Below, piece by piece: positions 8,777-60,770 of a DNA stretch of 64,000 nucleotides. Below the pieces are notes generated by a model. The model searched no databases. It was not told the DNA's origin and saw only the letters and a program-made list of their open reading frames with translations. Each line of letters opens with the position of its first letter. The stretch's first letter is position 1. The DNA comes from Prorocentrum cordatum (taxonomy: Eukaryota). The position numbers and the translations under genes were made by a program. The stretch lies in assembly GCA_963575745.1 (NCBI GenBank), contig CAUYUJ010000336.1, positions 1-64,000 of the forward strand, in the 5' to 3' direction.

Positions 8777-8798
8777 CTTGAGCCAACATGGATACGGA
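8777..8798 (-). other. Dinoflagellate spliced-leader relic
   Basis: Minus strand reads TCCGTATCCATGTTGGCTCAAG, a 20/22 match to DinoSL TCCGTAGCCATTTTGGCTCAAG. Confidence 0.85.
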
Positions 8799-10320: not shown

Positions 10321-13300
10321 GACAACCAACTGTTTTTTTGGCAGCGCGTCCGTGGCCGAAAGAGGAAACGGAGGGTCAGGAGAGGGAGAGAAACGGGAGT
10401 GGTGGACGTCCCCAGAACATAGGAAGCGAGCCCTCGGGGTGCCTCCGAACCGATGTCCAGGAGAGTTGGGACAGTCAGGGAACTGTAGGAGCAAGAAAGG
10501 GGCAGCCGTTATCTGTCGACTGAGGAGGAGGATGGAGCAGGAAATGGAGGAGGAGGGATAATGAGAAGGAAGAGGCTGAGGAGAAGGAGGAGGAGGAGGA
10601 GAGCCAGCAGAAGGCCCGAAGCTTTTGACTGCCTCTCGGAGTCTCTTGGGATGTCTCTTGGTGGATTTCTTGGCAACCCATGGCCGAAGACGGCGAGCTG
10701 ACGGCCCCAGAGGTCCCCGATGAAGCTTCCGAAAGGCCAAAAGCATCAAGCACGCATGGCTTTCTCAACACTGTTATCATTTACGTTATGTTGCTTTCGC
10801 AGCAGCCAAGACCGCCTCTGTGGCCCCCAATATTGTCCAGAGACGGTCCAGGAGGCCTCCAAGAGCATCACCACAGCCCAAGGCGGCGCCAAGATGGCCC
10901 AAGAGGCCCCCAAGACGAGCCCAGGAGGCCCGTGAGACGTCCCAAAGACGCCCAAGAAACGCCCAAAGACTTTCGACAGAGGGCTCCAAGAGGGCCTCCG
11001 AGGGCGTCTGTCGGACCGCGAGCGCTCTAAGGCAGCCCAAGGGGCCACCCAGAGACCCCAACAGGTTTTCAAAAGGCTCCAAAAAGACCCCAAGAGGCTA
11101 CCAAGAGGCCCCCAAAAGCTCCCCCAGAGGGTCCAAATAGGTTCCAACGAGACCCGCCCCCAAACCATACCAATTGGACGAGATGAGAGCTTGAAGACGG
11201 CCCGAGAAAGCCACATAACTGCTTAAGAAGCCGTTCGGATAGTTCAGGAGGCCCTCATGATGCTTGCATTGTTTCGCATTGAGGCGTATGGGTGTATCCT
11301 TACATTTAATGTGTGCCTGTTGGGTCCGCAGTCTTGCTACTTATTCGCGGCAACAGTGGGTAACCACTGGAGTGCAGTTGTGAGTTGGCCACGGACTGGG
11401 CCTTGCTGGAACCCAAGCGCGCACGAGGCGCGCGCGTGGTTCTGGTCCACATGTGTTTTGCCAAGACCTTGAATTATCACAGCACGTCGGACCAACATGT
11501 ATCCCCCCTTCTCCCAAATTCAAGGTTGACGGGTTTAGGCGGTAGGCTGAAAGCCAGGGACAAAATGTGGACACTTCAACTTTGGGTTTCGGGGGGAGGG
11601 GTGCGAAGCAGGGGCATTTCGCAGTTGTGGCTGTTATCATGTTGCGTTGCCTTACCGCCATGGGTGTGGACATTGTTTGTCTGGGCGCCGGCGGCCCCAA
11701 ATCGCTTTCGAGAGATGTCAGACAGCCGTTCAGGCGGCCCTGGACGGCCCCAAGTCACCCCCAAGGCGGCCTCCAAGGGTTTCAGAGGCTGCAGACGCCT
11801 CAAGAGACGACGCTCAAGACAGCCCCGACGGCCCCAGGAAGCACTCCAGGACGCCTCCGGGAAGGCCAAAACCTTCAAATCCAATGGCCAATGCGAGATC
11901 TATGATTTTGCCTTCTCGCCTTGTCGCTTCCGATGGTCTGCTGAGTTCGCAAGTCCGCCCCCAAGGCGCCCCCGCAAAGCTCTGTGGCCATTTCAGCTCA
12001 AGTCCTCTCCTTGTTTGACCGCGTGTTCCCAGTCCTGCGACGGCAAGTCCGCTACGCGCGATGTCGCTGCAGCACAACATGGCCCGCCTTCGCAGCGCCG
12101 AACAGTCTGCGAGTCGTCCTTCACGTTCTCCGTCATCGACCTCAAGCAGAGCACTCAGTCTCGCCCTCCTCTCACGGAGGAGGAGCTCACCGCCTTCAGG
12201 CCGCCCCCTCGGTGCCCCGCAAACGGCAGTACCGCCGAGCTTCAGACGGCGGCGGACGAGCCGATACGCTGGGCGGGGGCGGCGGTCTTGGCGCTCCGCA
12301 GGAACCCCAGGTCCACAGAGTCTCAGGAGTCGGAGAGGGGAGAAGCGACGCCAACACCACCCAGGGGGCCACCTCCAGCGTGTAGGCTGGGGACTGCTCG
12401 AGCGAGAGGAATGACCGCACCGCCAGGGGGGCCCCTTTGCTCCTCGCATCTCCTCGTCCTGGTGGTGTTGGCGTCGCCTCCCAGAGATCCGACGTCGTGG
12501 TATTTTTCAACGCGGGGTCCCTGGAAGTTTCGACCCATTCCCCAGGACCGGCTTTTCATTTTGAGTCGTTTTTAGACGCTCCCGAGGCCCGGCGAGGTCT
12601 TCTAGAGACCGAAAGCGGCGAACAACTCCCGTCTAGGCGTTTTCAACACGTTGGATCTCTGGGCCCCCTCGCTCCCGCAGAAGCGCGCCGCCGCGGAGGC
12701 CACGGGGCCCACAGTGCCCGTCAGGGGGGCAGCGCTCGCGGGCGCCTCGCTCCGGCCGGGGGCCCGGGCGTGCAGCTCGCTTTCCGGGGGCGCGCCGCCG
12801 AGCTCGTAGGGCGGAGGCGGGGGCGCGCCGCTCGCAGGGCGCAGGGGCGGTCCAGCGCGGCCTGCTGGCGCACAGATCGCGTTTCGGCGTCCATGCACGT
12901 AAACTTTGGCGCTCCGCGCAGATTTCTTGGATCCGCGCTTGGGCCCCCCCTGCGGCGCCTCAGGCGCCGCCCTGGCGCGCTCCGCGCGCCAGGGAGGGCT
13001 CCGCGCGCCAGGGGGGGGTCCAGCCCGGATCCAAGAAATCTGCGCGGAGCGCCACAAGTTAATGTTTATGCCGTTCGTTCTTCTTCTAGTGTCAGCAGGC
13101 AGTCGTCGAAGAGGCGGGGCTTCTGTGATGCGAGGGGGCCATTGGCTGGCCTCGCCGTCCTTTCCCGGCTGAGAGCCGCGCGCTGACAGACCGAGACACC
13201 TCGACCAGCCTCGACCCACGCGAGCAGGTATGTTCGCCTGGTGTCGGGTATGCAGTTACGGCTCCCTCAAGGTTTTATTTCAGAGTTTGGATCATGCGGC

Positions 13301-15242: not shown

Positions 15243-16970
15243 TTATGCGGATCATGTCATTCCGCTGGGCCCGCCAGCAACCCACGAAGGTGGCGACAGT
15301 TTTGCACTTCGCAGCCCCCTAGGGCCGGCGAGGCCTCATTCTGGTTCGCGTATCACGCCACCCCGCTGGATCCGCCAGCAGCCATCGAAAGTGGCGACCG
15401 TCTCGCTGCTCGCAGCCCCCAGGGACAGCAAGGTCTCATTCTGATATGTCGTAGGAGCCATCGGAATCGGGAACAATTTCGCAGCTCGCACTTCGCAGCC
15501 CCCAGCGGCGGCCAGGCCTCATTCTGATTCGCGTAGGACGTGACGCCGTTGGGCCCCCAGGAGCCCACGAAGGTGACGACAGCTCCGCTGTTCGCAGCCC
15601 CCAGGGACGGCGAGGTTTCATTCTGATCCGCAGAGATCGTCACGCCGCTGGGCCCGCCAGAAGCCCACGAAAGCACCGGCAGCATCATGGCTCGCAAGCC
15701 TCAGGGGCGGCGAGGTCTCATTCTGATCCGCGTAGGACGTCACGCCGCTGGGCCACCCAGAAGCCAAGGAGAGCGGCGACACTTTCGCATTTCGCAGCCC
15801 CCCAGGGGACGTCGAGGTTTCATTATGATATGCGTGTGTCGTCAATTCGCTGGACCTCCCAGGACCTCCCAAACGTGACGTCAGTTTCGCAGTTCGCAGC
15901 CCGCAGGGACGGCGAGATCTCATTCGGATCTGCGTGTGGTACCACTCCAGTGGACCTCCCAGGAGCCCCTGAAAGTGGCGACAGCTTCGCAGCTGCAGGC
16001 CCCAATCCCAGCGAGGCCTCAGTTTAACCCGCGTCGGACGTCACGCCGCTGGGCCATTCAGAAGCTCACGAGAGTGGCGACATATTCGCATGTCGCAGTC
16101 CCCAGGGATAGCGAGGACTCATTCTGATCTGCGTATGACGTCACTCCGCTGGACCTCCCAGAGGCACACGAACGTGGCGACTGTTTCGCCGTTCGCGGCC
16201 ACTTCAGGGACGGCGAGGCCTCATTCTGATCTGGGCGTGGCATCACCCCGCTGGGTTCCCAGGAACCCACGAAAGTGGCGACAGCTGGCGAGGCCTCATG
16301 ACGATATGCGAATGGCACCACTCAGCTGGACCCACCGGGGGCCCACGAAAGTGGCGACGGTTTCGCAGCTCGCGGCCTCCAGGGACGGCGATGCCTCATT
16401 CTGATCTGTTTGTGGCACCGTTTCGCTGAGCCTCCGAGGAGCCACCGAAACCAGCGACAGTTTCGCAGTTCGTATCCACCAGGGGCGGGGAGGTTTCTTT
16501 CTGGCCTGCATGTGGCACCACTCCGCTGGGCCTCCCAAGAGCCCCTGGAAGTGGCAACAGGTTCGCTGTTCGCAGCCCCCAGGGACGACGACGCCTCATT
16601 CTGATCTGCGGATCATGTCACTGCGCTGAGCCCGCCAGCAGCCCACGAAGGTGGCGACAGTTTTGCACTTTGCAGCCCCCCAGCGCCGGCGAGGCCTCAT
16701 TCTGGTTCGCGTATCGCGCCACCCCGCTGGATTTCCCAGGGCCTACGAGCGTGGCGCAATTTCGCAGTTCACGGCCCTCAGGGACGGCCAGGCTTCATTC
16801 GAATTTGCGTATGAAGTCACTCCGTTGGGCTTCCCCGGAGTCCACCAAGGTAGCGACATTTTCGCAGTTCGCAGCCCCCACGGACGGCGAGGCCTCATTT
16901 TTTGTCTGCGTATGAGACCACTTCGTTGGGCCTCCCAGGAGCCCACGAACGTGGCAACAGTTTCGCTGGG
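15243..16970. repeat. Diverged about 100-bp satellite, about 17 copies
   Basis: The motif GGCGAGGCCTCATTCTGATC...GTCACGCCGCTGGGCC...CACGAA...GGCGACAGTTTCGCAGTTCGCAGCCCCCAGGGAC recurs about every 100 bp (e.g. CATTCTG at about 15337, 15437, 15619, 15719, 16120, 16397, 16597). Confidence 0.9.
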
Positions 16971-17054
16971 CCCTCTTGGCCTGTCGTGGCCCGTTTGGGA
17001 GCGGGCCGCGGCAGTCTCGGGAGCCTTGGGACACCCCCGAAGCCTGGTGATGTC

Positions 17055-17240
17055 TGTGGAATCATATGGCTCCCTCTCGTCCTGACTATCCGTGCTTTTC
17101 TGTGTTTGTGTCTGTTGTATGCTTGCTTGTGCACAGCGCCGTGACTGACGCTTTGGCTCAAGCCATTCTGTGTGCGTTGAGTGCAAAGGCATCCCTTTCA
17201 GTACATTTTGCGATGGCCGCCTGAACCCGTCGTGCCCACA
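17055..17240 (+). repeat. 5' LTR (186 bp)
   Basis: TGTGGAATC...GTGCCCACA. It matches 25833-26018 except for two transitions (GCAAAGG/GCGAAGG and CATTTTG/CATCTTG). Confidence 0.98.
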
Positions 17241-17241
17241 G

Positions 17242-17259
17242 TGGTAGCGGAGCGTGGTT
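17242..17259 (+). promoter_or_regulatory. Primer-binding site, probably for initiator tRNA-Met
   Basis: TGGTAGCGGAGCGTGGTT begins 1 nt after the LTR. It starts with TGG (complement of CCA) and resembles the complement of eukaryotic iMet tRNA 3' ends (TGGTAGCAGAG...GGTT). Confidence 0.85.
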
Positions 17260-17373
17260 CACCGAACGACTTCCGGAAGCGAGGCCCAGGGCGGGTGCGC
17301 AGCTGGAGGACGGTTCACAGATCTACGGCAGGGCGAGGGCGACCTACGAGGGTGCAAGTACTGAAGACGGGTG

Positions 17374-18795
17374 ATGAGTCATTCGAGCGCAGCTGCCTCA
17401 GCTAGCAGAGGTGCTCTTGTTAGCCCTCGAGGCGGCAGGGAAGGGCTGACAGACGCAGACATCGACAAGATTGCAGGCAGAGTGGCCCAGATGATACGGC
17501 TGGGCACAGGGGCTGCGCCGGCCTCGGCGCCACCTGAGGGCGCACCTAACCTCCAGGGGCTCGCCGGTCAAGATCAGAGCGCGGCTCCATCTCACGAAGC
17601 AGGCTGGAGCGTGGTCGACGACCCCTGGACGGAACACGATCCGTGGCGAGAAGAGTGGAGAGCGAAGGATGCGCGGGCAGAAGAGGACAAGCTAACACCA
17701 CCATCCATGATGGCATCAGACACCTGGAAGGAGTGGAGAGACAGACCCGGGCGCCAACAGACCTGGGATCAAGACTACTCGTGGCAGAGCTGGGGTAGTC
17801 AAGGCAGCACGTGGCAGCACGACCGCGGCTGGTGGCAGGGCCAGTGGACCCAACCCAGGCCAGCACCATCCTGGCCAGGCTGGGAGAGATTCAGGCTGCG
17901 GAAGCAGTACGTGCAGCGCTGGAAGAACGGCCTGAACTTGAGCGAGGCTCAGGCAGCAGACAGACTGCTAGAGATCCTGCCCTGGGAGATCCGGGCGACC
18001 CTCGAGGACGTCCCGGATAGCGAGCTGACGGTCGAGCTCATACTGAAGAGGATGGGCCTCAAGTCCGGTGAGCGCGAGGACGACGACCTCTACCGGACGG
18101 GCAGCGAGGCCATGCAGGACACGGAGAGGAAGAAGGATGAGGACCTGCACACCTTCGCAGAGCGACGCCGACGCCAATTTGACAAGGCGAAGAGCATCGG
18201 GATGGAGATCCCACAGAAGATCCAGGGCATGCTGCTGATGCAAGGAGCTCGTCTCAACGAGCAGGGCAGACAGAACCTCAAGAGCCTGACGAAGGGCTCG
18301 ATGCTAGGCGAGGACATCCTCTGGGCGCTGCCCAAGCTGGACACCGGAGGAAAGATCTGGAGCGACGGCAAGCAATCATCACTATTGAGTATGGGACTGG
18401 AGGAGGCACTGCCAACTCCCGAGGTCCAGCGGGCAGAGACCGGGCCGGTCGAGGAGCCGATCTACGAGTGGTCGTACTGGGCCGACGAGCTGGACTCGGA
18501 GGACGAGGCCATGGTTCTCGTCGAGCTCTCCGAGAAGGGCCTCGCGGAGCCAGAGGTGGTCGAGACCTTGGCACAGATCGGCAAGACCAAGAAGACGTGG
18601 AAGGAGAACCAGCAGCTGAAGACTGCGCTCAAGCGGGATCGGGGCTTCTGGAAGAAGAAGCGCCGGCTCACCCCAACACAGCTGAAGTTGATCACGAAGT
18701 GCGGCAACTGTGGAGAAGTAGGGCACTGGCACAAAGAGTGCAAGAATCCTCATCGTCCCAGAGAGCGAGATGGCAAGGGCAAATCTCGGTCTTGA
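17374..18795 (+). CDS. gag: Gag polyprotein with C-terminal CCHC zinc knuckle
   Basis: First ATG at 17374. CGNCGEVGHWHKEC (CX2CX4HX4C) at 18700-18741. Ends at TGA 18793-18795. Confidence 0.93.
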   Translation: MSHSSAAASASRGALVSPRGGREGLTDADIDKIAGRVAQMIRLGTGAAPASAPPEGAPNLQGLAGQDQSAAPSHEAGWSVVDDPWTEHDPWREEWRAKDARAEEDKLTPPSMMASDTWKEWRDRPGRQQTWDQDYSWQSWGSQGSTWQHDRGWWQGQWTQPRPAPSWPGWERFRLRKQYVQRWKNGLNLSEAQAADRLLEILPWEIRATLEDVPDSELTVELILKRMGLKSGEREDDDLYRTGSEAMQDTERKKDEDLHTFAERRRRQFDKAKSIGMEIPQKIQGMLLMQGARLNEQGRQNLKSLTKGSMLGEDILWALPKLDTGGKIWSDGKQSSLLSMGLEEALPTPEVQRAETGPVEEPIYEWSYWADELDSEDEAMVLVELSEKGLAEPEVVETLAQIGKTKKTWKENQQLKTALKRDRGFWKKKRRLTPTQLKLITKCGNCGEVGHWHKECKNPHRPRERDGKGKSRS

Positions 18796-21700
18796 GGGGC
18801 CGAGATCGAGGCCTTCACGTTCACAGCGATCGGCGCGGGCGACGACCAGGACTTCAACATCGACGGCATCACGGTCCTGGGCAGGGAGGTGCTGGCGACC
18901 CTCAGGGAGATCGTCAGCTCGGAGACTACGGAGCTCTCGCTGCTGATTCTCGAGGGCGGCCTGATCATCGTGGACAGCGGTGCCTCCCAGGCTATCATAG
19001 GCCGCCGGGCTTTGAAGGAGCTCGAGGGAGATCTGCAGCAACGAGGCCTGCGGATCAACTGGATCGAGAAGAGCGTCCAGACACCTCGGGGTATCGGCGG
19101 ATCGGCCACGCTGGTCGGAGTCGCCGTGGTGCCCATCTCCATCGGTGGCAAGAGCGGGACCATCGAGTTCGTGGTGACGAAGGAGGACCTGCCGCCACTC
19201 TTACCAGGCGGGTTTCTCGAGCAGTTCGGCGCAGTGCTGGACTACGAGAAGGAACTTCTCATTTTGAAGAAGTTGGACTGTGAGACTGAGCTCCACCGGA
19301 TCGGGAAGAACCATCGGGGGATCTACATCAACGACTGGCGCGGGACGGAGAGCAGCTTCTCTCCCAGCTCGCGTGCCTTGCCAGCTGGACTCAGCTCGGA
19401 CGCCTTCCGAGCCCCGACTGAAAAAGAAGACGTACTCTCTTGGAAGGATCCCTCCAGGCCTCAGAAGGAGAGAAACGACCCCACAGGAGCCCCCGCACCT
19501 CAGAGAGATCCCGGGAGCCTGCATACCGACTACAGCAGTTCGAAACCAGTGATGCCTTCCTCCAACCACGACTCCCGCCACATCTCCAACCCTGTAGCTG
19601 ATCTGGCTCAAACATCGAGCCAGGCACAACCACCAAGCTCACCGCGAGATCCGCCTCAAGTCGATGCGGGACCGCCCAGACTTGGACATCTCAGAGAGGG
19701 TCAAGATCCAGTGGATCAGGCTGCTGCATGCCGGACTGATGTGGACACAGACCCTCATGGACAAGTTCTTTGCTCTGAACAGGCGCGGGAGACTCTTCCC
19801 GGGAAAGGAGCTCCGTCGGAGGATGGTGGAGGACCCCAGGCTGGTGAACGACCTCTACGAGTACCGGGTTCCGATGACGGCTCCCTTGGCGGACGGGTCG
19901 GTGCCTTGGACGCTCTGTGTGCACCGCCCCAGGTGGTTCGTGACCTCCCACAACCAGTACGGGAACTGGGAGCAGTGCAACAAGTGCAAGGTGAGGACGT
20001 CCTATCGAGAGATCGGGTACCGCGGGGGCGGCCACCGACAGATGACGGCACCGGAGATGAGGAAGCTCAAGCAGCAGCTCCCGCGCGACGTCAGGCCCCT
20101 GAGCTCGGCAGGCTCGGCGATGCGGGAGGGCGCAGCTCCGGCTCCGAGTCGACGCGTGGCGTCGGCGCCGAACGACGAGAACACCTGGTCGAGCTTCAAC
20201 CAGGAGCCCCCGCCACCGTGGGCATCAGAGATGGTGCGAGGCCTGTCGGCAGCAGTGGCCGAGGCGATGGCGGCATCCACGGGGCCGATGACAGCAGCGA
20301 TACGCGAGCAGTCCGTGACGCTCTCGCACATGGTGGCCACGATGCAGCAGATGGCGTCAGAGTCTCCAGCAGCAGGCGGAAGTGCGGACTCCAGCTCGCC
20401 GACACCGCCAACCGGTCCGCCACCGACGACCACCGGGGCATTGCCAAACCTCGGGTTCACCATGGTGGAGGAGGTCCCGGCGGACACCGACATGAGGGGC
20501 AACTGAGAGAGAGCGGCGTGCTGCGGCTACTTGGCGACAAGTCTCGACAGGAGTGCTGGCTTCGAATCCCTACCTCTCGCAGTTTACACAGAGAGGCCAG
20601 CGCTGTTCTGGAGCAGGCCAGGGCCAACGGCCGGTGCTACCGGATCGATCAGGAGGCTTTGGAGAAAAGCGAAGGCCCTCTATCTTCTCCCTCATCCCGT
20701 CTCAATCTCCCCTCTGTTCCTGCCTGGCAGTGTGAGTCCGACGACGGGCGATACCGACTCTGGGTCAGCACCTACACATCCACCTATCAGGGTAGACCCA
20801 ACTCTACCGAAGGCGGGTCTGCGGGTGCGGGGTTCTACTACGTTGTCCCTCTCCAGAGCTACCTGTCTATCACGACGCTACGCGGCTCCGAGCTACATCA
20901 CGACTCCGACGACACGCTAGCTAATCTAACGGGCCTGGACAACTACACTCACCAGTTCAAGGTTGACCAGAGGAGTAAGCGTCGTCTTCGTCAGAGTCTC
21001 CGAGGTCTTGGAAGAGTATCGGGATCCGACTCCTGGGGATTCGAGTTTGTTGAAGTTTTCTCACCTCCTCGCACGGCAAAGGTCTCCTCTCAGCTGGGCT
21101 CCAGGGGCTCACCGACTGGTGGCAGCTTAGACTTAACCACGGGCTGGGATTTCCGACGTACGGATCACCGGGAGCTAGGAAAGCGGTTGATCAAGAAGTG
21201 GCGTCCATGGTTGGCATTTCTCAGTCCTCCCTGCACTGAATTCGCCGCCATCAACGCAGTCAACGATGAGCGGCGAGATCCGATCGAGATGGCCCGAGCG
21301 CGTGGAGAAGCATTGGACCTGTGGGCGTACGCGATGGAGATAATCGAGCTTCAGATCTCGGGCGGTCGCAAGTTCGCTCTGGAACAACCTACTACTGCGA
21401 CCTCTTGGGCTCTTCCCAGTACTCAGAGGCTTCTGGAGCTCCCGGGCGCATCCAGGATCACGTTTGACATGTGCAGGTTTGGGCTCTCGGTCAGGCCTGG
21501 CACGATTTCCAAGAAGCCAACCACTGTGGTCTCCAACGACTGTGAAGTTTACAGGGCTCTCTTGGGAAAACGGTGTGCCGGGGACCACCGACATTTGGTG
21601 CTGGAGGGAGGCGGTCTGCCACGACGCGCGGCATGCTATCCTACTAAGTTCTGCAAGACCATAGCCCACGCGGTTCACCGATCCGCAGAGCTTCAGCAGC

Positions 21701-24700
21701 TGGGAACCGACGAGAGCTTTCCGAGCGGGGTGCTGGCGACTCGTCGACAGGAACGACCGACCCAGTCTCAGGTGGAGGGCCACGAGCAGGACAACTCTGA
21801 GGACGAGGAGGAGGAGGATGAGCAGCAGCAGCAGCAGGACTGCCCGTTGACTCAGGAGCAGATTCGGCAGGTGGAGAAGGCACATATTAATCTTGGTCAT
21901 CCCACCAAGAGAGACCTGCTTCGTATCCTTCGGTGTGCTCACGCTCGGCCAGAGATACTGCGCTACGTTCAGCATCACTTTGTGTGCCAGTCATGCGAGA
22001 GTGCCGGCAAGTCGATTCCTCAGCGAAAGGCAACAGTTGCTCGGACATTCTCATTCAACAAGCTGATTGGAGTAGACCTGTTCTTTGTGACATATCAGCA
22101 CCGGGAGTACACGTTTCTGAATGCCGTATGCCTGGGGACCTCGCTACAGTGGGTAGGGATTGTGGGACCCGGGAGATGTTCGCAGCCAGCAGCAGTGTGG
22201 AAAGCCTTCTCACGGGGGTGGATCCGACATTACGGACCTCCAGAGGTCCTTATATCCGACGGCGGGAAGGAATTCGAGGCTGAGTTTAGCAGACACTTGG
22301 AGCAACAAGGGGTGTTCCAGCACACCACCGACGCAGACAGCCCTTGGCAGAACGGGAAGACAGAGCGGGCGGGTCAATGGTTGAAGGAGCGGCTCCAGCG
22401 GTTCGTGGACGATACCATCCTGGAGGGACCCGACGACCTAGAGCTGGCGGCCTGCGAATTGGCTGCCTGGCGGAATCGTTTCCTGAATCGAGGCGGGTAT
22501 TCACCACTACAGCTAGTATTTGGGCAAACCCCCAGGGTACCACAGGAGTTGCTCAGCGAGGACCCGTTAGACCACATAGGACTTCACGATCTCGAGGAAC
22601 CGAGCGCCGACCTCGACAGTGCGGCGGCAGCTTTCCGACATCAACACGAGATCCGGTCTCGTGCCCGACAGCTTGCGATGGAAGGAGATGCGCGTAGGAA
22701 GTTGCAGCATGCGTTGGGATCAGCGCGGCACAGGGACAGGACCTACCGACCAGGGGATTGGGTATACATCTGGAGGCGAGCGCCCAAGACAGGGCGCAAA
22801 CCATACGGTTTGCAACGGGATCGGTGGGTTGGGCCAGGTGCAGTGATATTTCATCATGGAACAACAGTGTGGGTGTGTGTGCGCAGTCGTTTGTGGAAAT
22901 GCAGTTGTGAACAGATACGACCTGCTACGCAGTCAGAGTCCCTCGGGGCCGAGCTCATCCAGACCACGTGCTATCGGGACGTCTTGGACGAGCAGCTTGC
23001 TAAGGGGATCTCGGGAGGGGCTCTAGACGTTGCTCAAGAGGGACCACCACCACCAGAGGCCACCATGACTCCCATCAGCTCCGAGGGTAACGCGTCTCCT
23101 GTGACCATAGCACCAGCAGGCTCCAACGAGGTTCCAGGCCACCAAGGGGGCTCTCGGGACTCCAACATGGGCTCCAACAACATCGAGGCTCCAGAGGTCC
23201 CTACTCCAGCTCCCGACTCCAGCTCCCACCCCACTCCAGCTCCGACTCCGGCTGTCGCAGGTATTGTGGCTCAAGCAGTTGCTGAGCCTCCTGCACCGCC
23301 ACCGGGACTGCGACCTCCGACCCAGGCTGCCGGCGTGAGACCTAGACCGCGACTCGTCTGGGCTCCCGGTCCAGTGACTCGTCTGATACCTGTGCCAGAA
23401 CACGAGGAGTCAGATCCTGCTCCAGCGGACCCTGCAGGAGCTCTCGGACAGGGCGGTGCTGTCTCAGCCGCAGCCGGACCTCAGAGGGAGCCAGCCGCCG
23501 AGCCAACACCTCCTGTGTCTCAGACTGGCTCGACACCTGCCGGATCGGAGACAGGCTCACAGGCGGTGGCCACAGCTGGCGGCTCGCGGGCTTCGTCGAG
23601 ACGACCTTCTCTGTCCGAGGACGACCTGGAGATCAAGCGAGCCAGGCTGGATCCTGACACACTCCGGTCCGCGACCGGAGGGGCTCCTACCGACGAACAG
23701 CTCAGGGGTTCTGGCCTACCGACACCCATGGAGCTCTTGCCAAGGGCCGAGGGTCGGGTTCGCACCCAAATCCAGGAGTTCGAGAACTGGCGGTCTCAGC
23801 AGAGCAGCGCTGCAGCCTTTTCTCAGGCCGGGCCCCTGGAGACGGGGTCGGAGACCCCGATGGACGAGACCGGCTTCAGCGCTCTCGAGGGCTACTGCCA
23901 GGTGCTGGACTCTTGGTTCGAGGACTCCGGCTGGAGCGGGGACGTCGAGACCTACATGAACGGCCGGAAGGATCTGATCTTCGAGTGCTCAGAGGACAGC
24001 GCCGGGCAGTGGTCTCTGCTCTCCTCACGCGGTGGGGAGGTCAAGCTCAAGGATCTCTCGGCACAGGAGCTCGAGGATTTCCGACGATCGGACGAGGCCG
24101 AGTGGGGCGTACTCAACAAGCCTAACGTGCTGCGGATCCTCAGCAAGGAGGAGTCCACTCATGTGCTTCGCACCCGGCCAGAGCGGGTGCTATCGTCCAG
24201 GATGGTACGACGATGGAAGGCCCAGGAGGGTACGTTTAGTGCCCCAAAGGCCAAGAGCAGATGGTGCGTGCACGGTTTTGCAGATCCTGACACTGAGCAT
24301 CTAGTGACGTATTCTCCGACGCCTCAGTCCGAGGCCATGATGCTTTTCGGGCTGGTACTCTTGGGCCATGGCATGGACCAGAGTATAGTGGACTGCAAGA
24401 ACGCATTCAGTCAGTCGAGGCGACTCCGCAGGGCTGGTGGACCCATCTACGTGGCTCCCTGTGAGGGGCTCACTGGCATTCACGTTCCCGACGGGTGCCT
24501 TATTGAGCTACATGTCGCCGTCTATGGTCTAGACGACGCCCCTTGGGAATGGCACGCCACGATCACCTCCTACCTACGCGACCTTGGCTTCAAGAAGTTG
24601 CTGATGGAGCCATGCTACTGGACTCTCCGGGAGCAGGGCGCCCTGAAGGCTCAGGTCCTGATGGAGGTGGACGACCTTTGGCTGGGTACAGTTGCCTCCC

Positions 24701-25821
24701 ACACGAGGTGGTTGGCCGACTCTCTCAAGGCCAGGTTCACCTTCGGCAAGTGGAGAGGCGACGAGGCCGAGTTTGCAGGACGCCGCATCAGGAAGGAGGC
24801 TCACCGCATTCGCCTGGACCAGGAGAAGTACATATTGGAGGATATTCATCCGATTGTCTTGGAGAAGGGCCGCCGCTCCAAGAGACAAGAGCCTCTGAGC
24901 CGCTCAGAGTTCGAGCAGCTCCGATCCGGCATCTACCGGATCAACTGGGCGGCGAAGGAGACCCGTCCCGAGGTGGCGGGCACGGCTTCCATACTCGCCA
25001 GCAAGCTGGAGCAGGCGGTGGTGGAGGACATCGTTGTTTTCAATCGGGCCGTCCAGATGCTGCGTGACACCGCCTCGCAGTACCTGACCATCTGGCGCCA
25101 CGACCTATCGCAGGTGGTGAGTTTTACTTTGAGCGACGCGGCGGGGATTGGCACGGACTCACCCATACAGTGTGCCTGGGCTGTGGGAGTGGCTGACCCT
25201 CAGCTGGCCGCCGGACTGACCAGCAAGGTGACGATGCTTTCCTGGAGATCCTCCAAGATGCGTCGAGCTGCCAACTCATCCCTGGCCGGTGAGGCCAACT
25301 CTCTCTGCCAGTCTCTTGGAGAAGCCGACTGGATCCAGCTGCTACTTCGTGACGCTTGCTTTGGGGACGTTCCTACTGCCGACTGGCGACAGCACGCAGG
25401 CCCCTACGTGTCGGTGTTACGTGACAACTGCGAGTTGCACCGACCCTTGCCTGGAGTTCATGCCACGGACGCCAAGTCCATCTTCGACTGTCTCTCCAAG
25501 AACTGTGCTGGCCGGAAGGAGGACCGCAGGACTTCCGTGGACCTCGCAATTGCTCGTGACTCTTTCTCCCAGCGGGGCTCGTGCGTGAAGTGGTTTCCTC
25601 ACCTGCTCAATCCCACTGATGTGATGACCAAGGCTGATGTGTCCAAGGGGTCCGATGCCATGGGTCACATGATTCGCCGTGGGACTTTGACGTTGAGTGA
25701 TGCTGAGTCGGAGAGGGCTCACCTCTTGGCCGGTGGTGAGAAGGGCCGGCGCAGTCGAGAGGCCAGCCGCCGCTATCTACAGGATCGCGAGCGCCGCCTC
25801 GAGGAGTCAGGCCGACAGTAA
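18796..25821 (+). CDS. pol: Pol polyprotein: aspartic protease, C5-MTase-like domain, integrase, RT, RNase H; probably expressed by UGA readthrough from gag
   Basis: Open in the gag frame from 18796 to TAA 25821. Protease IVDSGAS (18973). MTase-like EVFSPPR/LSPPC/LEQP. Integrase HINLGH..CQSC, GVDLF, ISDGGKEF, QNGKTER. RT KSRWCVHGF, DCKNAF, VYGLDDAP, EVDD. RNase H SDAA..E..TDAKS..NPTDVMTK. Confidence 0.95.
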   Translation, partial: GAEIEAFTFTAIGAGDDQDFNIDGITVLGREVLATLREIVSSETTELSLLILEGGLIIVDSGASQAIIGRRALKELEGDLQQRGLRINWIEKSVQTPRGIGGSATLVGVAVVPISIGGKSGTIEFVVTKEDLPPLLPGGFLEQFGAVLDYEKELLILKKLDCETELHRIGKNHRGIYINDWRGTESSFSPSSRALPAGLSSDAFRAPTEKEDVLSWKDPSRPQKERNDPTGAPAPQRDPGSLHTDYSSSKPVMPSSNHDSRHISNPVADLAQTSSQAQPPSSPRDPPQVDAGPPRLGHLREGQDPVDQAAACRTDVDTDPHGQVLCSEQARETLPGKGAPSEDGGGPQAGERPLRVPGSDDGSLGGRVGALDALCAPPQVVRDLPQPVRELGAVQQVQGEDVLSRDRVPRGRPPTDDGTGDEEAQAAAPARRQAPELGRLGDAGGRSSGSESTRGVGAERREHLVELQPGAPATVGIRDGARPVGSSGRGDGGIHGADDSSDTRAVRDALAHGGHDAADGVRVSSSRRKCGLQLADTANRSATDDHRGIAKPRVHHGGGGPGGHRHEGQLRESGVLRLLGDKSRQECWLRIPTSRSLHREASAVLEQARANGRCYRIDQEALEKSEGPLSSPSSRLNLPSVPAWQCESDDGRYRLWVSTYTSTYQGRPNSTEGGSAGAGFYYVVPLQSYLSITTLRGSELHHDSDDTLANLTGLDNYTHQFKVDQRSKRRLRQSLRGLGRVSGSDSWGFEFVEVFSPPRTAKVSSQLGSRGSPTGGSLDLTTGWDFRRTDHRELGKRLIKKWRPWLAFLSPPCTEFAAINAVNDERRDPIEMARARGEALDLWAYAMEIIELQISGGRKFALEQPTTATSWALPSTQRLLELPGASRITFDMCRFGLSVRPGTISKKPTTVVSNDCEVYRALLGKRCAGDHRHLVLEGGGLPRRAACYPTKFCKTIAHAVHRSAELQQLGTDESFPSGVLATRRQERPTQSQVEGHEQDNSEDEEEEDEQQQQQDCPLTQEQIRQVEKAHINLGHPTKRDLLRILRCAHARPEILRYVQHHFVCQSCESAGKSIPQRKATVARTFSFNKLIGVDLFFVTYQHREYTFLNAVCLGTSLQWVGIVGPGRCSQPAAVWKAFSRGWIRHYGPPEVLISDGGKEFEAEFSRHLEQQGVFQHTTDADSPWQNGKTERAGQWLKERLQRFVDDTILEGPDDLELAACELAAWRNRFLNRGGYSPLQLVFGQTPRVPQELLSEDPLDHIGLHDLEEPSADLDSAAAAFRHQHEIRSRARQLAMEGDARRKLQHALGSARHRDRTYRPGDWVYIWRRAPKTGRKPYGLQRDRWVGPGAVIFHHGTTVWVCVRSRLWKCSCEQIRPATQSESLGAELIQTTCYRDVLDEQLAKGISGGALDVAQEGPPPPEATMTPISSEGNASPVTIAPAGSNEVPGHQGGSRDSNMGSNNIEAPEVPTPAPDSSSHPTPAPTPAVAGIVAQAVAEPPAPPPGLRPPTQAAGVRPRPRLVWAPGPVTRLIPVPEHEESDPAPADPAGALGQGGAVSAAAGPQREPAAEPTPPVSQTGSTPAGSETGSQAVATAGGSRASSRRPSLSEDDLEIKRARLDPDTLRSATGGAPTDEQLRGSGLPTPMELLPRAEGRVRTQIQEFENWRSQQSSAAAFSQAGPLETGSETPMDETGFSALEGYCQVLDSWFEDSGWSGDVETYMNGRKDLIFECSEDSAGQWSLLSSRGGEVKLKDLSAQELEDFRRSDEAEWGVLNKPNVLRILSKEESTHVLRTRPERVLSSRMVRRWKAQEGTFSAPKAKSRWCVHGFADPDTEHLVTYSPTPQSEAMMLFGLVLLGHGMDQSIVDCKNAFSQSRRLRRAGGPIYVAPCEGLTGIHVPDGCLIELHVAVYGLDDAPWEWHATITSYLRDLGFKKLLMEPCYWTLREQGALKAQVLMEVDDLWLGTVASHTRWLADSLKARFTFGKWRGDEAEFAGRRIRKEAHRIRLDQEKYILEDIHPIVLEKGRRSKRQEPLSRSEFEQLRSGIYRINWAAKETRPEVAGTASILASKLEQAVVEDIVVFNRAVQMLRDTASQYLTIWRHDLSQVVSFTLSDAAGIGTDSPIQCAWAVGVADPQLAAGLTSKVTMLSWRSSKMRRAANSSLAGEANSLCQSLGEADWIQLLLRDACFGDVPTADWRQHAGPYVSVLRDNCELHRPLPGVHATDAKSIFDCLSKNCAGRKEDRRTSVDLAIARDSFSQRGSCVKWFPHLLNPTDVMTKADVSKGSDAMGHMIRRGTLTLSDAESERAHLLAGGEKGRRSREASRRYLQDRERRLEESGRQ
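19664..20506 (+). CDS. Overprinted +1-frame ORF inside pol, 280 aa, with a putative zinc-binding motif
   Basis: Protein-like composition with C-x-H...NQYGNWEQCNKC, while the overlapping pol frame is G/R/D/A-rich and disordered. The frame is open from about 19598. Confidence 0.65.
   Translation: MRDRPDLDISERVKIQWIRLLHAGLMWTQTLMDKFFALNRRGRLFPGKELRRRMVEDPRLVNDLYEYRVPMTAPLADGSVPWTLCVHRPRWFVTSHNQYGNWEQCNKCKVRTSYREIGYRGGGHRQMTAPEMRKLKQQLPRDVRPLSSAGSAMREGAAPAPSRRVASAPNDENTWSSFNQEPPPPWASEMVRGLSAAVAEAMAASTGPMTAAIREQSVTLSHMVATMQQMASESPAAGGSADSSSPTPPTGPPPTTTGALPNLGFTMVEEVPADTDMRGN
21040..21680 (+). other. Cytosine-C5 DNA methyltransferase-like domain within pol
   Basis: FVEVFSPPR (divergent motif I), DLTTGWD, SPPC (motif IV, 21223-21234), FALEQP (motif VI-like, 21382), DMCRFG, KKPT, AACYP. 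Confidence 0.8.
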
Positions 25822-25832
25822 GTGGGGGGAGC
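25820..25832 (+). promoter_or_regulatory. Polypurine tract
   Basis: AAGTGGGGGGAGC immediately precedes the 3' LTR and overlaps the pol stop codon. Confidence 0.9.
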
Positions 25833-26018
25833 TGTGGAATCATATGGCTCCCTCTCGTCCTGACTATCCGTGCTTTTCTGTGTTTGTGTCTGTTGTATGC
25901 TTGCTTGTGCACAGCGCCGTGACTGACGCTTTGGCTCAAGCCATTCTGTGTGCGTTGAGTGCGAAGGCATCCCTTTCAGTACATCTTGCGATGGCCGCCT
26001 GAACCCGTCGTGCCCACA
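25833..26018 (+). repeat. 3' LTR (186 bp)
   Basis: Direct repeat of 17055-17240, followed by TSD ATGTC. Confidence 0.98.
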
Positions 26019-26235
26019 ATGTCTCTCCCGCTCCTTTCGTGGGGCCGGCTGGGACACAGGAGGGACCTCAGCGAATCCAGTGTGGGGCTTACTTCTGGGC
26101 GCTCTGAAGATGGTGTAGCGCTAAAACAACCACATGCATAGACCAGAATGGTTGACAAAAACATGTTGGTGAGTTTTTTTTCAGAACCAGAAAAGATGGC
26201 GTTCGCAGTTTTTTGGTTTTGAGACATGACAATTG

Positions 26236-26395
26236 TAGCCCCTTCCGATTTTCAAAATAGAGCGTGTTAGCCCATTCTGATTTTCAAAAAAAGAGCGCGT
26301 TTGCCCATTCTGATTTTCAAAAAAGAGCGCGTTAGCCCAGTCCGATTTTCAAAGAAGAGCGCGTTAGGTCCTTTCGATTTGCAAAAAAAGTGGTT
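26236..26395. repeat. About 32-bp tandem repeat, 5 copies, inside an AT-rich island (about 26100-26720)
   Basis: Consensus TAGCCCATTCYGATTTTCAAAAAAGAGCGCGT. Confidence 0.85.
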
Positions 26396-60633: not shown

Positions 60634-60732
60634 GGAGGAGGAGGAGGAGGAAAACGAGGAGGAGGAGGAGGGGGGGGAGGAGGAGGATGAGGGGGAGGAG
60701 GTGGAGGAGGAGGAGGAGGAGGAGGCTCCTTG

Positions 60733-60770
60733 GCCATTTTGGCTCAAGTCCGTAGCCATTTTGGCTCAAG
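60733..60770 (+). other. Tandem dinoflagellate spliced-leader copies
   Basis: GCCATTTTGGCTCAAG (60733-60748) is followed by a perfect TCCGTAGCCATTTTGGCTCAAG (60749-60770). Confidence 0.97.

Follow-up and report, generated by a model that had tools for sequence, protein, structure and literature searches.

The window analysed here is the whole stretch of 64,000 nt of Prorocentrum cordatum DNA, in which a complete Ty1/copia-type LTR retrotransposon carries, inside its pol frame, a second frame that stays open on the same strand. The question raised by this locus is which of the two frames is the gene, and by what route each of them could be read. A previous reading made from the letters (hereafter, the sequence-only reading) had claimed two frames open together for about 900 bp, and this is what we found: a +1 frame ORF of 302 codons, from stop to stop (19598..20506, + strand), is nested in a pol frame of 2341 open codons (18796..25821, +). 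The translation of the former contains the quoted peptide LCVHRPRWFVTSHNQYGNWEQCNKC. As the proposed CDS, which we call X, we considered the 280 aa plus TGA (20504-20506) at 19664..20506 (+), a choice based on composition, on relatives and on ATG 19664 being the first ATG after a spliced leader (SL)-like site; the +1 frame has 22 further open codons upstream of this ATG.

The element is bounded by a 5′ LTR of 186 bp with TG..CA ends (17055..17240, +) and by a 3′ LTR at 25833-26018, and a 5-bp target-site duplication, ATGTC (unstranded; 17050..17054, other copy 26019-26023), directly adjoins the TG..CA ends of both LTRs. The repeat was found as a 190-bp repeat with 98.4% identity; the LTR proper has 2 mismatches and is 98.9% identical between its two copies, and because of this we considered the element copy as young. 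A primer-binding-like site starting with TGG follows the 5′ LTR and a purine run precedes the 3′ LTR. The gag ORF (17374..18795, +; 473 aa from ATG 17374) has a visible CCHC knuckle, with motif CGNCGEVGHWHKEC (zf-CCHC E 0.01, 16.3 bits versus a cutoff of 20.8), and is ended by a TGA (18793-18795) in frame with pol. At the position of this TGA the gene models P0007 and P0009 have Gly; judging by its gag/pol TGA, the copy at 17055-26018 may itself be defective. The pol frame comprises, in order, the protease (PR), a spacer over X, an unassigned domain, the integrase (INT), a linker, the reverse transcriptase (RT) and an RNase H region. Precisely, the protease active-site motif IIVDSGAS, with its D-S-G, is at 18964..18987 (+; Asp_protease_2 E 0.071, below cutoff), the integrase region with H-H-C-C and D,D,E-like motifs is at 21883..22374 (+; rve_3 E 0.07, below cutoff), and RVT_2 (Pfam) matched pol aa 1806-2014, that is 24211-24837, with E 3.1e-11. 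The assignment to Ty1/copia is based on the TG..CA LTRs with their 5-bp duplication and on the PR - INT - RT order with RVT_2. Within the 64-kb window, blastn and tblastn found no further copies of the element.

To decide which frame is native, we considered composition and codon usage. Over 19640-20360 the GC content at codon positions 1/2/3 of the +1 frame was about 0.55 / 0.43 / 0.83-0.93, the same pattern as in gag/PR (0.63 / 0.42 / 0.86), and the third-position GC of the pol frame was 0.40-0.47; in this copy codon-position GC, which the sequence-only reading had proposed to check across copies, favours the +1 frame. A codon-usage log-odds score trained on gag/PR/RT gave, over 19550-20150, values of +0.09 to +0.26 for the +1 frame and of -0.20 to -0.26 for pol. 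Codon usage thus marks the +1 frame as native over 19598-20506 and the pol reading as secondary, and the direction of the overprinting, which had been described as a gene overprinted within pol, has to be reversed. A +1 ORF of at least 302 codons arose in 0.6% of 2000 pol-codon shuffles.

The pol frame lacks a coding signature over 19459..20598 (+) by composition and codon usage, and reads there as a spacer rich in G/A/P/S/R/D/E with no aromatics. In fact, its translation across X has 0 F/W/Y in 281 residues, with 15% hydrophobic residues and 69% G/A/P/S/R/D/E, whereas X is non-repetitive, and aromatic residues make up 6.4% of it and 10% of its first half, comparable to gag, PR and RT. The earlier description of an aromatic-containing +1 frame facing a disordered linker in pol thus holds. 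Residues 1-165 of X are basic (pI 10.7) and residues 166-280 are acidic (pI 4.05). The motif C85-x-H87-x17-C105-x2-C108 (19916..19987, +) holds all three Cys of X. From this basic C-H-C-C half and the acidic tail we take X to be a putative zinc- and nucleic-acid-binding helper of the element. The profile search proposed for the Cys/His motif matched no described zinc-finger family (Pfam, NCBIfam), the best PDB profile match being the I-TevI DNA-binding domain with E 0.8; likewise X had no Pfam or NCBIfam match and the ESM Atlas gave no usable result. A structure model of X from 4 sequences had a pLDDT of 38.3, too poor for a fold search.

Searches for relatives of X returned 3 matches among 1.84 billion representatives and 1 more among longer proteins: P0004 with 99% identity, P0009 with 87% and P0005 with 61% over about 250 aa, plus a 79-aa fragment. 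All the named relatives come from the gene models of P. cordatum. Both P0009 and P0005, whose proteins diverge by 12.5% and 38%, respectively, keep the X frame intact, the sole gap with respect to P0005 being of 19 codons, a multiple of 3. Stops in the +1 frame or loss of the Cys/His residues in relatives would have spoken against a gene; P0005 is open over the span, and C85, H87, C105 and C108 are kept in all three relatives covering them (P0004, P0009 and P0005). Three gene models (P0004, P0007 and P0009) run PR into X, and each of them requires a frame change; because all three share it, the offset between X and pol does not stem from a mutation private to the copy studied here.

We compared the amino acid replacements in X with random non-synonymous changes. 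The mean BLOSUM62 score of the replacements was 0.08 versus P0005 (n=96) and 0.25 versus P0009 (n=32), with a random expectation of -0.53 +/-0.15 and -0.52 +/-0.27, respectively; out of 5000 simulations, none reached the observed value for P0005 and 0.2% did for P0009. Replacements in gag were likewise conservative (0.16 vs -0.48 random). Conservation along X versus P0005 was uneven, ranging from 40% to 85% per 30 aa. Identity to P0009 was 87.5% for X, 91.8% for gag and 94.5% for PR, and the replacements fell at codon positions 1:2 in ratios of 19:16 and 47:33 for X and of 23.5:6.5 for gag; the faster change of X than of gag/PR and the near-equal use of positions 1 and 2 would fit a weaker constraint. 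The support for purifying selection on the X frame is thus at the protein level, and it has to be read with one condition: if P0005 were a host paralogue, the 61% comparison would reflect selection on a host gene, and the P0009 comparison (87%) would be the one informative about selection inside the element. On the basis of its coding composition, of the relatives at 87% and 61% and of the invariant C-H-C-C, X is probably a genuine, selected and conserved accessory gene of this P. cordatum copia-type family, as the proposal of an accessory retroelement gene had it.

We also searched for the DNA of X relatives. Metagenome contigs gave 154 pattern matches, of which 0 were confirmed, and 0 were confirmed in viral contigs. 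The sole locus on a prokaryote contig, in a Gemmatimonadetes MAG (L001), was rejected as a chance match, its translation having a stop and Arg-rich off-frame text. In contigs of sequencing runs, among the 40 of 1576 differences listed, one was inside X (20380). Nine supplementary files of the P. cordatum proteome paper contained neither the single X peptide that was looked for nor any of the terms 'copia', 'retrotransposon' and 'Pol polyprotein'.

Regarding the route by which X could be read, the new element here is a degenerate full-length copy of the dinoflagellate SL (DinoSL), CCTGTAGCTGATCTGGCTCAAA, at the 5′ edge of X (19591..19612, +), which suggests a route to a separate X message. The DinoSL consensus that we used is confirmed by PMC7245778 and by a perfect copy at 60749 in the window. 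The site agrees with it at 15/21 scored positions, and its TAG (19595-19597) is the stop bounding the +1 ORF; it has 6 mismatches, a longest exact run of 8 nt, and was found after the fact. Published relic screens, as described in parts of 10.1101/783902 and PMC7245778, need a 9-nt word or at most 1 mismatch, and this site would fail them. A pyrimidine-rich tract (19556..19595, +; 72% C+T, 99.1th percentile of the 40-nt windows of the element) lies directly before AG 19596-19597. As in relic retrogenes, this AG is in an acceptor-like context and the next ATG, the one of X, opens 280 codons, 51 nt downstream from the site. In the window there are three clear DinoSL relics elsewhere (60727/60749, 11981, and 8798 on the minus strand), with the first ATG at 58, 78 and 94 nt. 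ATG 19552 and ATG 19664 are separated by a gap of 112 nt, and the SL-like site falls within it; this gap makes up 1.3% of the element.

Two other places in the element resemble the SL. A sequence in the LTR (17141..17162, +, the same at 25919-25940) has as its last 11 bases the DinoSL 3′ end, and the 40 nt upstream, ending at CAG, are 68% pyrimidine (97.9th percentile of the element). A second internal SL-like 22-mer with 16/21 matches (23254..23275, +) is at the start of the INT-RT linker, with 70% pyrimidine before its AG (98.6th percentile). The element has 2 matches of at least 15/21, where 0.057 would be expected, and none of 300 dinucleotide shuffles reached 2. Two further tests were discarded: a first ATG opening a long ORF is found for 39% of element positions, so that of this argument we retained just the narrower one on the 112-nt interval, and the ATG-free leader of 452 nt after the 23254 site was not significant (P(0) 0.095 on shuffles).

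Our main reading, to which we assign a probability of roughly 0.45, is that X is a real accessory gene whose ORF formerly came first on an SL-capped mRNA, that its expression probably goes through a trans-spliced subgenomic RNA, and that pol crosses it as an off-frame spacer. The SL relic at the 5′ edge of the ORF would be the mark of this former mRNA, whose cDNA would have become part of the element; the mRNA could have been captured from the host, or it could have been a trans-spliced subgenomic RNA of the element itself that was copied back in reverse transcription. Unprocessed genomic RNA would be translated as Gag-PR-spacer-Pol, the pol frame acting as a disordered spacer that joins the protease to the downstream pol domains. 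SL trans-splicing at the relic AG (19596-19597), behind the pyrimidine tract, would instead give a subgenomic mRNA in which the ATG of X is the first start codon. We infer from the DNA alone the cDNA origin, the trans-splicing, the translation of both frames and the function of X; a relic of this type shows, if genuine, that an SL-capped RNA existed in the past, not that the site is used at present. Among the routes proposed by the sequence-only reading, trans-splicing thus gains support at the DNA level (the degenerate DinoSL 51 nt before the first ATG), whereas for a -1 frameshift near the X end we found no XXXYYYZ slippery heptamer in 20300-20520. A wider picture, which we regard as tentative, is that this copia family built DinoSL trans-splicing into its own genome, with SL copies in acceptor-like contexts ahead of gag (in the LTR), of X and of RT-RNase H, so as to produce a genomic RNA and SL-capped subgenomic mRNAs, X being an orphan zinc-binding accessory protein encoded out of frame in a pol spacer that must stay open.

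The claim that pol is kept open across X agrees with the 0 stops and the disordered-looking spacer, and we evaluated it by fixing the X protein and redrawing synonymous codons. Out of 1000 draws, which had 4.44 stops on average, 0.7% left the pol frame without any stop, and over all null draws the fraction was 0.7-1.4%. The same null over-predicted stops by ~1.6-fold in control genes (observed vs expected: gag 5 vs 8.15, PR 3 vs 5.36, RT-RH 17 vs 27.24), and because of this we corrected the P from 0.007 to about 0.07. The openness of pol fits a need to read through and is marginal after this calibration. Replacements resulting from position-3 changes were 1/116 in X vs 5/46 in gag+PR (Fisher P 0.007), which we considered as a hint only. 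Pol-frame identity to the P0005 copy across X was at most 72.5%. Used as a protein query, the pol-frame spacer had no match among 8000 candidates of 1287-4097 aa; the tail of P0006, considered as pol frame, was rejected (E 0.22, not significant).

The published gene models reach X through cis-introns, without a separate start. In a different explanation, X would be translated at the C-terminus of Gag-PR following a change of frame, obtained either by removal of a 3n+1 cis-intron or by +1 ribosomal frameshifting, so that Gag-PR-X (end 20504) and Gag-PR-spacer-Pol come from one DNA; this would be a variant of the alternative splicing that copia elements have near the protease. In P0004 and P0009 ...KDPSR is followed by (H/R)N..HREIRLKS through one and the same junction, AG|GC ... 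AG|G, with a GC..AG intron of 166 nt at 19458-19623; this donor/acceptor type is permitted in a dinoflagellate annotation pipeline (part of PMC10666404). Frame-shifting alternative splicing centred on the protease is documented in Arabidopsis Ty1/copia and in Drosophila copia (part of PMC5580714), and the 22 open codons before the ATG of X are also in favour of this explanation. However, the third model, P0007, has a different junction, and 137 G[TCA]..AG introns of 3n+1 length join PR to X stop-free, in 27 cases with the acceptor followed by G; because they are equally possible, the modelled 166-nt intron is not special. This intron would also excise the SL-like site and leave it unexplained, and by eye, in an informal check, we recognised no Ty1-like shift site. 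On balance, we consider this extension unlikely. Contigs of four sequencing runs (kind 'DNA?' or '?') had no joint matching 19458-19623; a single-contig joint from 19622 to 19786 (depth 2.9, side 20) was seen in them, which is uninformative.

X could also be a fossil, either the cDNA of a captured SL-mRNA or a former polyprotein domain shifted by the insertion of a 22-nt SL, silent today, its DNA being read just as the pol-frame spacer; the +1 frame would still be open because the family is young and GC-rich. A 22-nt (3n+1) insertion shifts the downstream frame by +1, the exact offset of X, and after the SL-like site at 23254 the GC phase shifts in a similar way, but the +1 frame has 3 stops there, which indicates that such stretches can decay; in addition, the conservation of X is lower than that of gag and PR, and the copy is young by its LTRs. 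Against a silent X are the frame intact through 12.5% and 38% divergence with a gap that is a multiple of 3, replacements far more conservative than random, the uneven conservation along its length and the 4.4 stops that a local codon shuffle leads one to expect per 302 codons. A fossil appears to us quite improbable. The idea that the +1 ORF is open just by chance, with gene models in it as annotation artefacts, is already disfavoured and hardly credible: the DNA is GC-rich (0.53-0.65 in the window) with numerous frames open around X, the +1 frame with the pol protein fixed has 1 stop vs 3.4 expected (P 0.13) and gene predictors change frame in the INT-RT linker too, a stretch with stops in its +1 frame, but codon-position GC and codon usage match those of the real genes of the element, the sequence is non-repetitive with aromatic residues, and over this stretch a 61%-identical relative is likewise open, its replacements being conservative.

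Additional ORFs and captured host sequences occur in LTR retrotransposons and retroviruses, as accessory genes overlapping pol or env and as transduced cellular genes, and X, read as an accessory gene, resembles them in being an extra gene besides gag and pol, possibly acquired as cDNA via template switching. Such ORFs usually follow pol, ahead of the 3′ LTR, or precede gag, or are antisense; we know of no sense accessory ORF in the middle of pol with pol open across ~900 nt.

With relic DinoSL retrogenes (parts of PMC7245778 and PMC3229502) the locus shares a 22-nt SL copy tens of bases before the first ATG, with an AG at SL positions 6-7 reusable for trans-splicing, but here the ORF is inside the pol of an LTR element, out of frame, and the relic is far more worn (15/21). 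The Arabidopsis EVD shGAG RNA and the Drosophila copia 2-kb RNA (part of PMC5580714) are similar in that a single-ORF element makes a shorter second message, processed beside the protease, which alters downstream translation. According to the same part of that source, translation of the processed RNA ends soon and gives Gag only, whereas here the alternative frame is a conserved 280-aa protein; moreover, EVD and copia use cis-splicing, whereas the DNA evidence at X points to trans-splicing. In one preprint (part of 10.1101/783902) retroposition and retrotransposition are treated as independent processes, and a literature search (titles, abstract openings) found no description of SL relics inside LTR elements.

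Dinoflagellate genomes are huge, retrocopy-rich and regulated mainly post-transcription, and the expression of their abundant LTR elements in SL-using cells is essentially undescribed. SL copies heading ORFs, together with a conserved orphan gene out of frame in pol, offer a testable model of subgenomic trans-splicing. If true, this would be, as far as the literature search shows, the first LTR retrotransposon reported to use SL trans-splicing for subgenomic expression, it would link mRNA retroposition and retrotransposition, which have been handled separately so far, and it would represent a natural case of a pol linker overprinted onto an older gene. It is also a warning for annotation: public gene models stitch the X frame to pol by invented-looking introns, and the native frame is recognisable from composition alone.

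On its 5′ side X does follow the protease (D-S-G at 18964), as the sequence-only reading had placed it; the 'methyltransferase' said to be on its 3′ side has no database support. This pol domain (21034..21700, +) is unassigned, with no Pfam, NCBIfam or PDB-sequence match, and for PF00145 (C5 cytosine methyltransferase) there was no match at E up to 10 in Pfam or PDB sequences and none in NCBIfam. A fold model from the single sequence was unusable (pLDDT 34.0). In the ESM Atlas the nearest cluster with a family was PF00145 at 0.87, with 165 shared features, a value below the usual range and hence a lead only. SymbioLINE-Dnmt and SymbioDIRS-Dnmt3 (part of PMC5890265) are dinoflagellate retroelements with a host-derived domain in the coding region, as might be the case here; however, they are LINE and DIRS elements, whereas the present one is copia-type and its downstream domain is without a PF00145 match, and the Symbiodinium Copia elements are described in the same source as being without any DNMT domain.

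X, the 280-aa product proposed in the +1 frame (ATG 19664 to TGA 20504-20506), is encoded by a conserved orphan gene that lies within a copia pol, out of frame with it, and is apparently tagged by a worn spliced leader (SL). The X and pol ORFs are parts of one complete LTR retrotransposon, whose ORFs are flanked by a 190-bp direct repeat (98.4% identity). After refinement to TG..CA ends, the 5′ LTR was placed at 17055-17240 and the 3′ LTR at 25833-26018, with two mismatches between them; the 5-bp duplication ATGTC borders the element on either side, a site starting with TGG follows the 5′ LTR and a purine run precedes the 3′ LTR. The gag gene (ATG 17374, with a CCHC motif) ends at a TGA (18793-18795) in frame with pol, which is open for 2341 codons (18796-25821) and includes a D-S-G protease (PR) motif (18964), integrase (INT) motifs (21883-22374) and a copia-type reverse transcriptase (RVT_2, E 3.1e-11). 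Given this PR-INT-RT order, we considered the element as Ty1/copia-like. The sources of proteins that match its parts at 99-100% identity name them as Prorocentrum cordatum. In P0007 and P0009, relatives from two other copies, a Gly stands at the position of the gag-pol TGA, which makes a single ORF probable for the family; the copy studied here would then carry a nonsense change or depend on readthrough.

The sequence-only reading had two frames open together for about 900 bp, and the +1 ORF (19598-20506, 302 codons) does lie within the pol frame and contains the quoted peptide. Its contrast between a disordered pol linker and an aromatic +1 product was also found: across X, none of the 281 pol-frame residues is aromatic and 69% are G/A/P/S/R/D/E, whereas X has 6.4% aromatics (10% in its first half), similar to gag, PR and RT-RNase H (RT-RH). 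As for the GC at codon positions 1/2/3 in this copy, gag and PR have about 0.63/0.42/0.86, and over X it is the +1 frame that has a matching pattern (about 0.55/0.43/0.83-0.93 in ~19640-20360), the third-position GC of the pol frame being just 0.40-0.47 in the same region. Similarly, with gag, PR and RT-RH as the training set, the codon log-odds score was +0.09 to +0.26 for the +1 frame and -0.20 to -0.26 for pol in 19550-20150, while elsewhere it favours pol, apart from the INT-RT linker and the ends. In overlapping genes the frame with typical coding composition is usually taken as the native one; hence, over X, the +1 frame is native and the pol reading secondary.

The joint openness of the two frames is unusual, not overwhelming. 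A +1 ORF of at least 302 codons arose in 0.6% of pol-codon shuffles (n = 2000), local codon shuffling gives 4.4 expected stops in the +1 ORF, and the pol frame was stop-free in 0.7% of 1000 synonymous redraws that held the X protein constant. This last null overstates stops about 1.6-fold (seen versus predicted: gag 5 versus 8.15, PR 3 versus 5.36, RT-RH 17 versus 27.24), so a realistic figure is ~0.07. The case for X rests on composition and relatives.

We scanned for SL-like sites with the DinoSL consensus DCCGTAGCCATTTTGGCTCAAG, as reported in the available text of PMC7245778. A perfect copy at 60749 adjoins a 19/21 copy (the pair within 60727-60770), and further relics were found at 11981-12002 (17/21) and, on the minus strand, at 8777-8798 (19/21); all of these likely mark retrogenes, and these clear relics, outside the element, precede ORFs of 117-268 codons. 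The element has two hits, at 19591-19612 (15/21, at the 5′ edge of the +1 ORF) and 23254-23275 (16/21, where the Pro/Ala-rich INT-RT linker begins), against a mean of 0.057 in dinucleotide shuffles, with two reached in 0/300. Moreover, both LTRs carry the exact last 11 SL bases (17152-17162 and 25930-25940), and the window has 8 occurrences of the 8-mer TGGCTCAA versus 2.6 expected, 4 of them within the element and 3 in clear relics. The stop bounding the +1 ORF is supplied by the TAG in the 19591 copy; pyrimidines make up 72% of the 40 nt preceding the AG of this copy, which ranks at the 99.1th percentile within the element (70% at 23254 and 68% at the LTR). The first ATG past this copy, 51 nt away, is that of X; for the clear relics the distances are 58, 78 and 94 nt. 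The interval that makes this ATG the first one is 112 nt, 1.3% of the element, and the copy falls inside it. By analogy, the copy and the ATG of X would have the architecture of a retrocopied SL-capped mRNA, as described in the available text of PMC7245778 and PMC3229502.

The LTR SL-like stretches span 17141-17162 and 25919-25940; just upstream there is a CAG behind the pyrimidine tract, then CCATT, a truncated relic start, and the gag ATG is the second one after the stretch, past a 3-codon uORF. This arrangement suggests that trans-splicing also acts on the genomic RNA itself and that the LTR has taken up the SL. Past the site at 23254, the GC phase again shifts (23240-23700) to the +1 frame, which holds 3 stops there; the next ATG in any frame, 23728, belongs to the pol frame and is the start of the 697-codon RT-RH part. 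The 452-nt ATG-free run after this site was not significant on shuffles (P 0.095).

To the mechanism as a whole we give a probability of roughly 45%. An SL-capped RNA, with X as its first ORF, would have given rise to a cDNA that now lies within the element; the genomic RNA would be translated straight through in the pol frame as Gag-PR-spacer-Pol, and trans-splicing at the AG of the relic would give a subgenomic mRNA for X. The source RNA could be a host message or a processed RNA of the element, and we lean to the latter since gag, X and RT-RH, all major ORFs, are each preceded by one of three SL-like sites. We infer the expression of X from these DNA features. Of the routes proposed in the sequence-only reading (alternative trans-splicing, internal initiation or frameshifting), trans-splicing gains from the SL-like copy and its pyrimidine tract, while no slippery heptamer was found near the end of X. 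Known kinds akin to this arrangement are relic-SL retrocopies, additional ORFs of LTR elements and copia RNA processing.

When 1.84 billion representatives were searched exhaustively without a profile, three proteins matched X, and word-based searches gave one more. Gag-PR is followed by a jump into the X frame in three gene models, P0004 (793 aa, 99%), P0007 (1802 aa, in the same cluster) and P0009 (978 aa, 87%); none of the models that cross from PR into X (0/3) does so without changing frame, and the offset thus belongs to the family as a whole. X as part of a Gag-PR-X protein, through a cis-intron or a +1 frameshift, is an unlikely explanation: gene models join PR to X via GC..AG at 19458-19623, and protease-centred splicing of copia elements, in the available text of PMC5580714, is analogous, but 137 other 3n+1 introns would serve equally and P0007 is joined at a different junction. 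P0005 (256 aa, 61% over ~250 aa) covers X alone, with a sole gap of 19 codons. P0006, a fragment of 79 aa, is 53% identical to X and comes from a transcriptome-derived set labelled Pyramimonas sp., a green alga, where it could be contamination or a related element; its tail did not match significantly as a pol-frame continuation (E 0.22).

Selection on X was judged at protein level. Identity to P0009 is 94.5% for PR, 91.8% for gag and 87.5% for X, and along X it is uneven (40-85% per 30 residues). The mean BLOSUM62 of X replacements was 0.08 versus P0005 (n = 96; random non-synonymous -0.53 ± 0.15) and 0.25 versus P0009 (n = 32; random -0.52 ± 0.27); gag replacements are likewise more conservative than random. 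The X replacements imply a difference from the P0005 copy at 27.5% or more of the pol-frame residues; as a protein, then, the spacer is not conserved. Replacements requiring the third position are 1/116 in X versus 5/46 in gag and PR (P 0.007), a scarcity that weakly hints at added constraint from the pol frame. X replacements fall about equally on codon positions 1 and 2, unlike those of gag, and X evolves faster, which would fit a weaker constraint. That X is an unexpressed fossil, favoured by the 3n+1 length of the SL (22 nt) and the decayed +1 frame after 23254, we consider slightly less probable still than a Gag-PR-X protein; against it speak the open frame of the relatives, the conservative replacements and C85, H87, C105 and C108 (counted from ATG 19664), invariant in the relatives covering the site. 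A pure-chance ORF is highly improbable; the finding is real and of more interest than that.

The accessory retroelement gene of the sequence-only reading holds as a conserved orphan ORF with gag/PR-like composition and relatives at 87% and 61%. The four residues of its possible C-H-C-C zinc site are invariant; X had no match in family (Pfam, NCBIfam), PDB profile or ESM Atlas searches. The basic part of X, residues 1-165 (pI 10.7), contains the only three Cys as well as the conserved His87, and the remainder (166-280) is acidic (pI 4.05). As a low-confidence guess, X could assist the element by binding zinc and nucleic acid. X was also placed between protease and methyltransferase: it is downstream of the PR motif, but the pol domain between X and integrase (~21034-21700), called a methyltransferase, had no Pfam, NCBIfam or PDB-sequence match. 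In the ESM Atlas its 30 nearest clusters are unnamed (0.96), the nearest named one being DNA_methylase PF00145 (0.87). In the available text of PMC5890265, the dinoflagellate elements that bear a DNMT are of the LINE or DIRS type, and Copia elements of Symbiodinium reportedly have no DNMT domain. The pol domain at ~21034-21700 may be a family-specific acquisition.

ATGs are scarce in the element (87 in 8968 nt; mean spacing in the window 60 nt). Of the ATG-free gaps in the window, the two longest fall within it, 782 nt (18770-19552) and 715 nt (20492-21207), as does the sixth-longest, 561 nt (23167-23728); the protease region has no Met. About 110 bp separate the element from upstream tandem arrays of 100-bp units (15482-16943, 69-70% matches, with about 8 and 6 copies), and some 220 bp separate the 3′ LTR from a downstream 32-bp tandem repeat (26236-26388, 4.8 copies, 85% matches). 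Within pol, a GAG/CAG-rich simple repeat (21799-21839) encodes an acidic/Gln run and matches several other sites of the window; its summed contig depth, up to 6513, was very high in 4/4 runs, as for a common low-complexity repeat.
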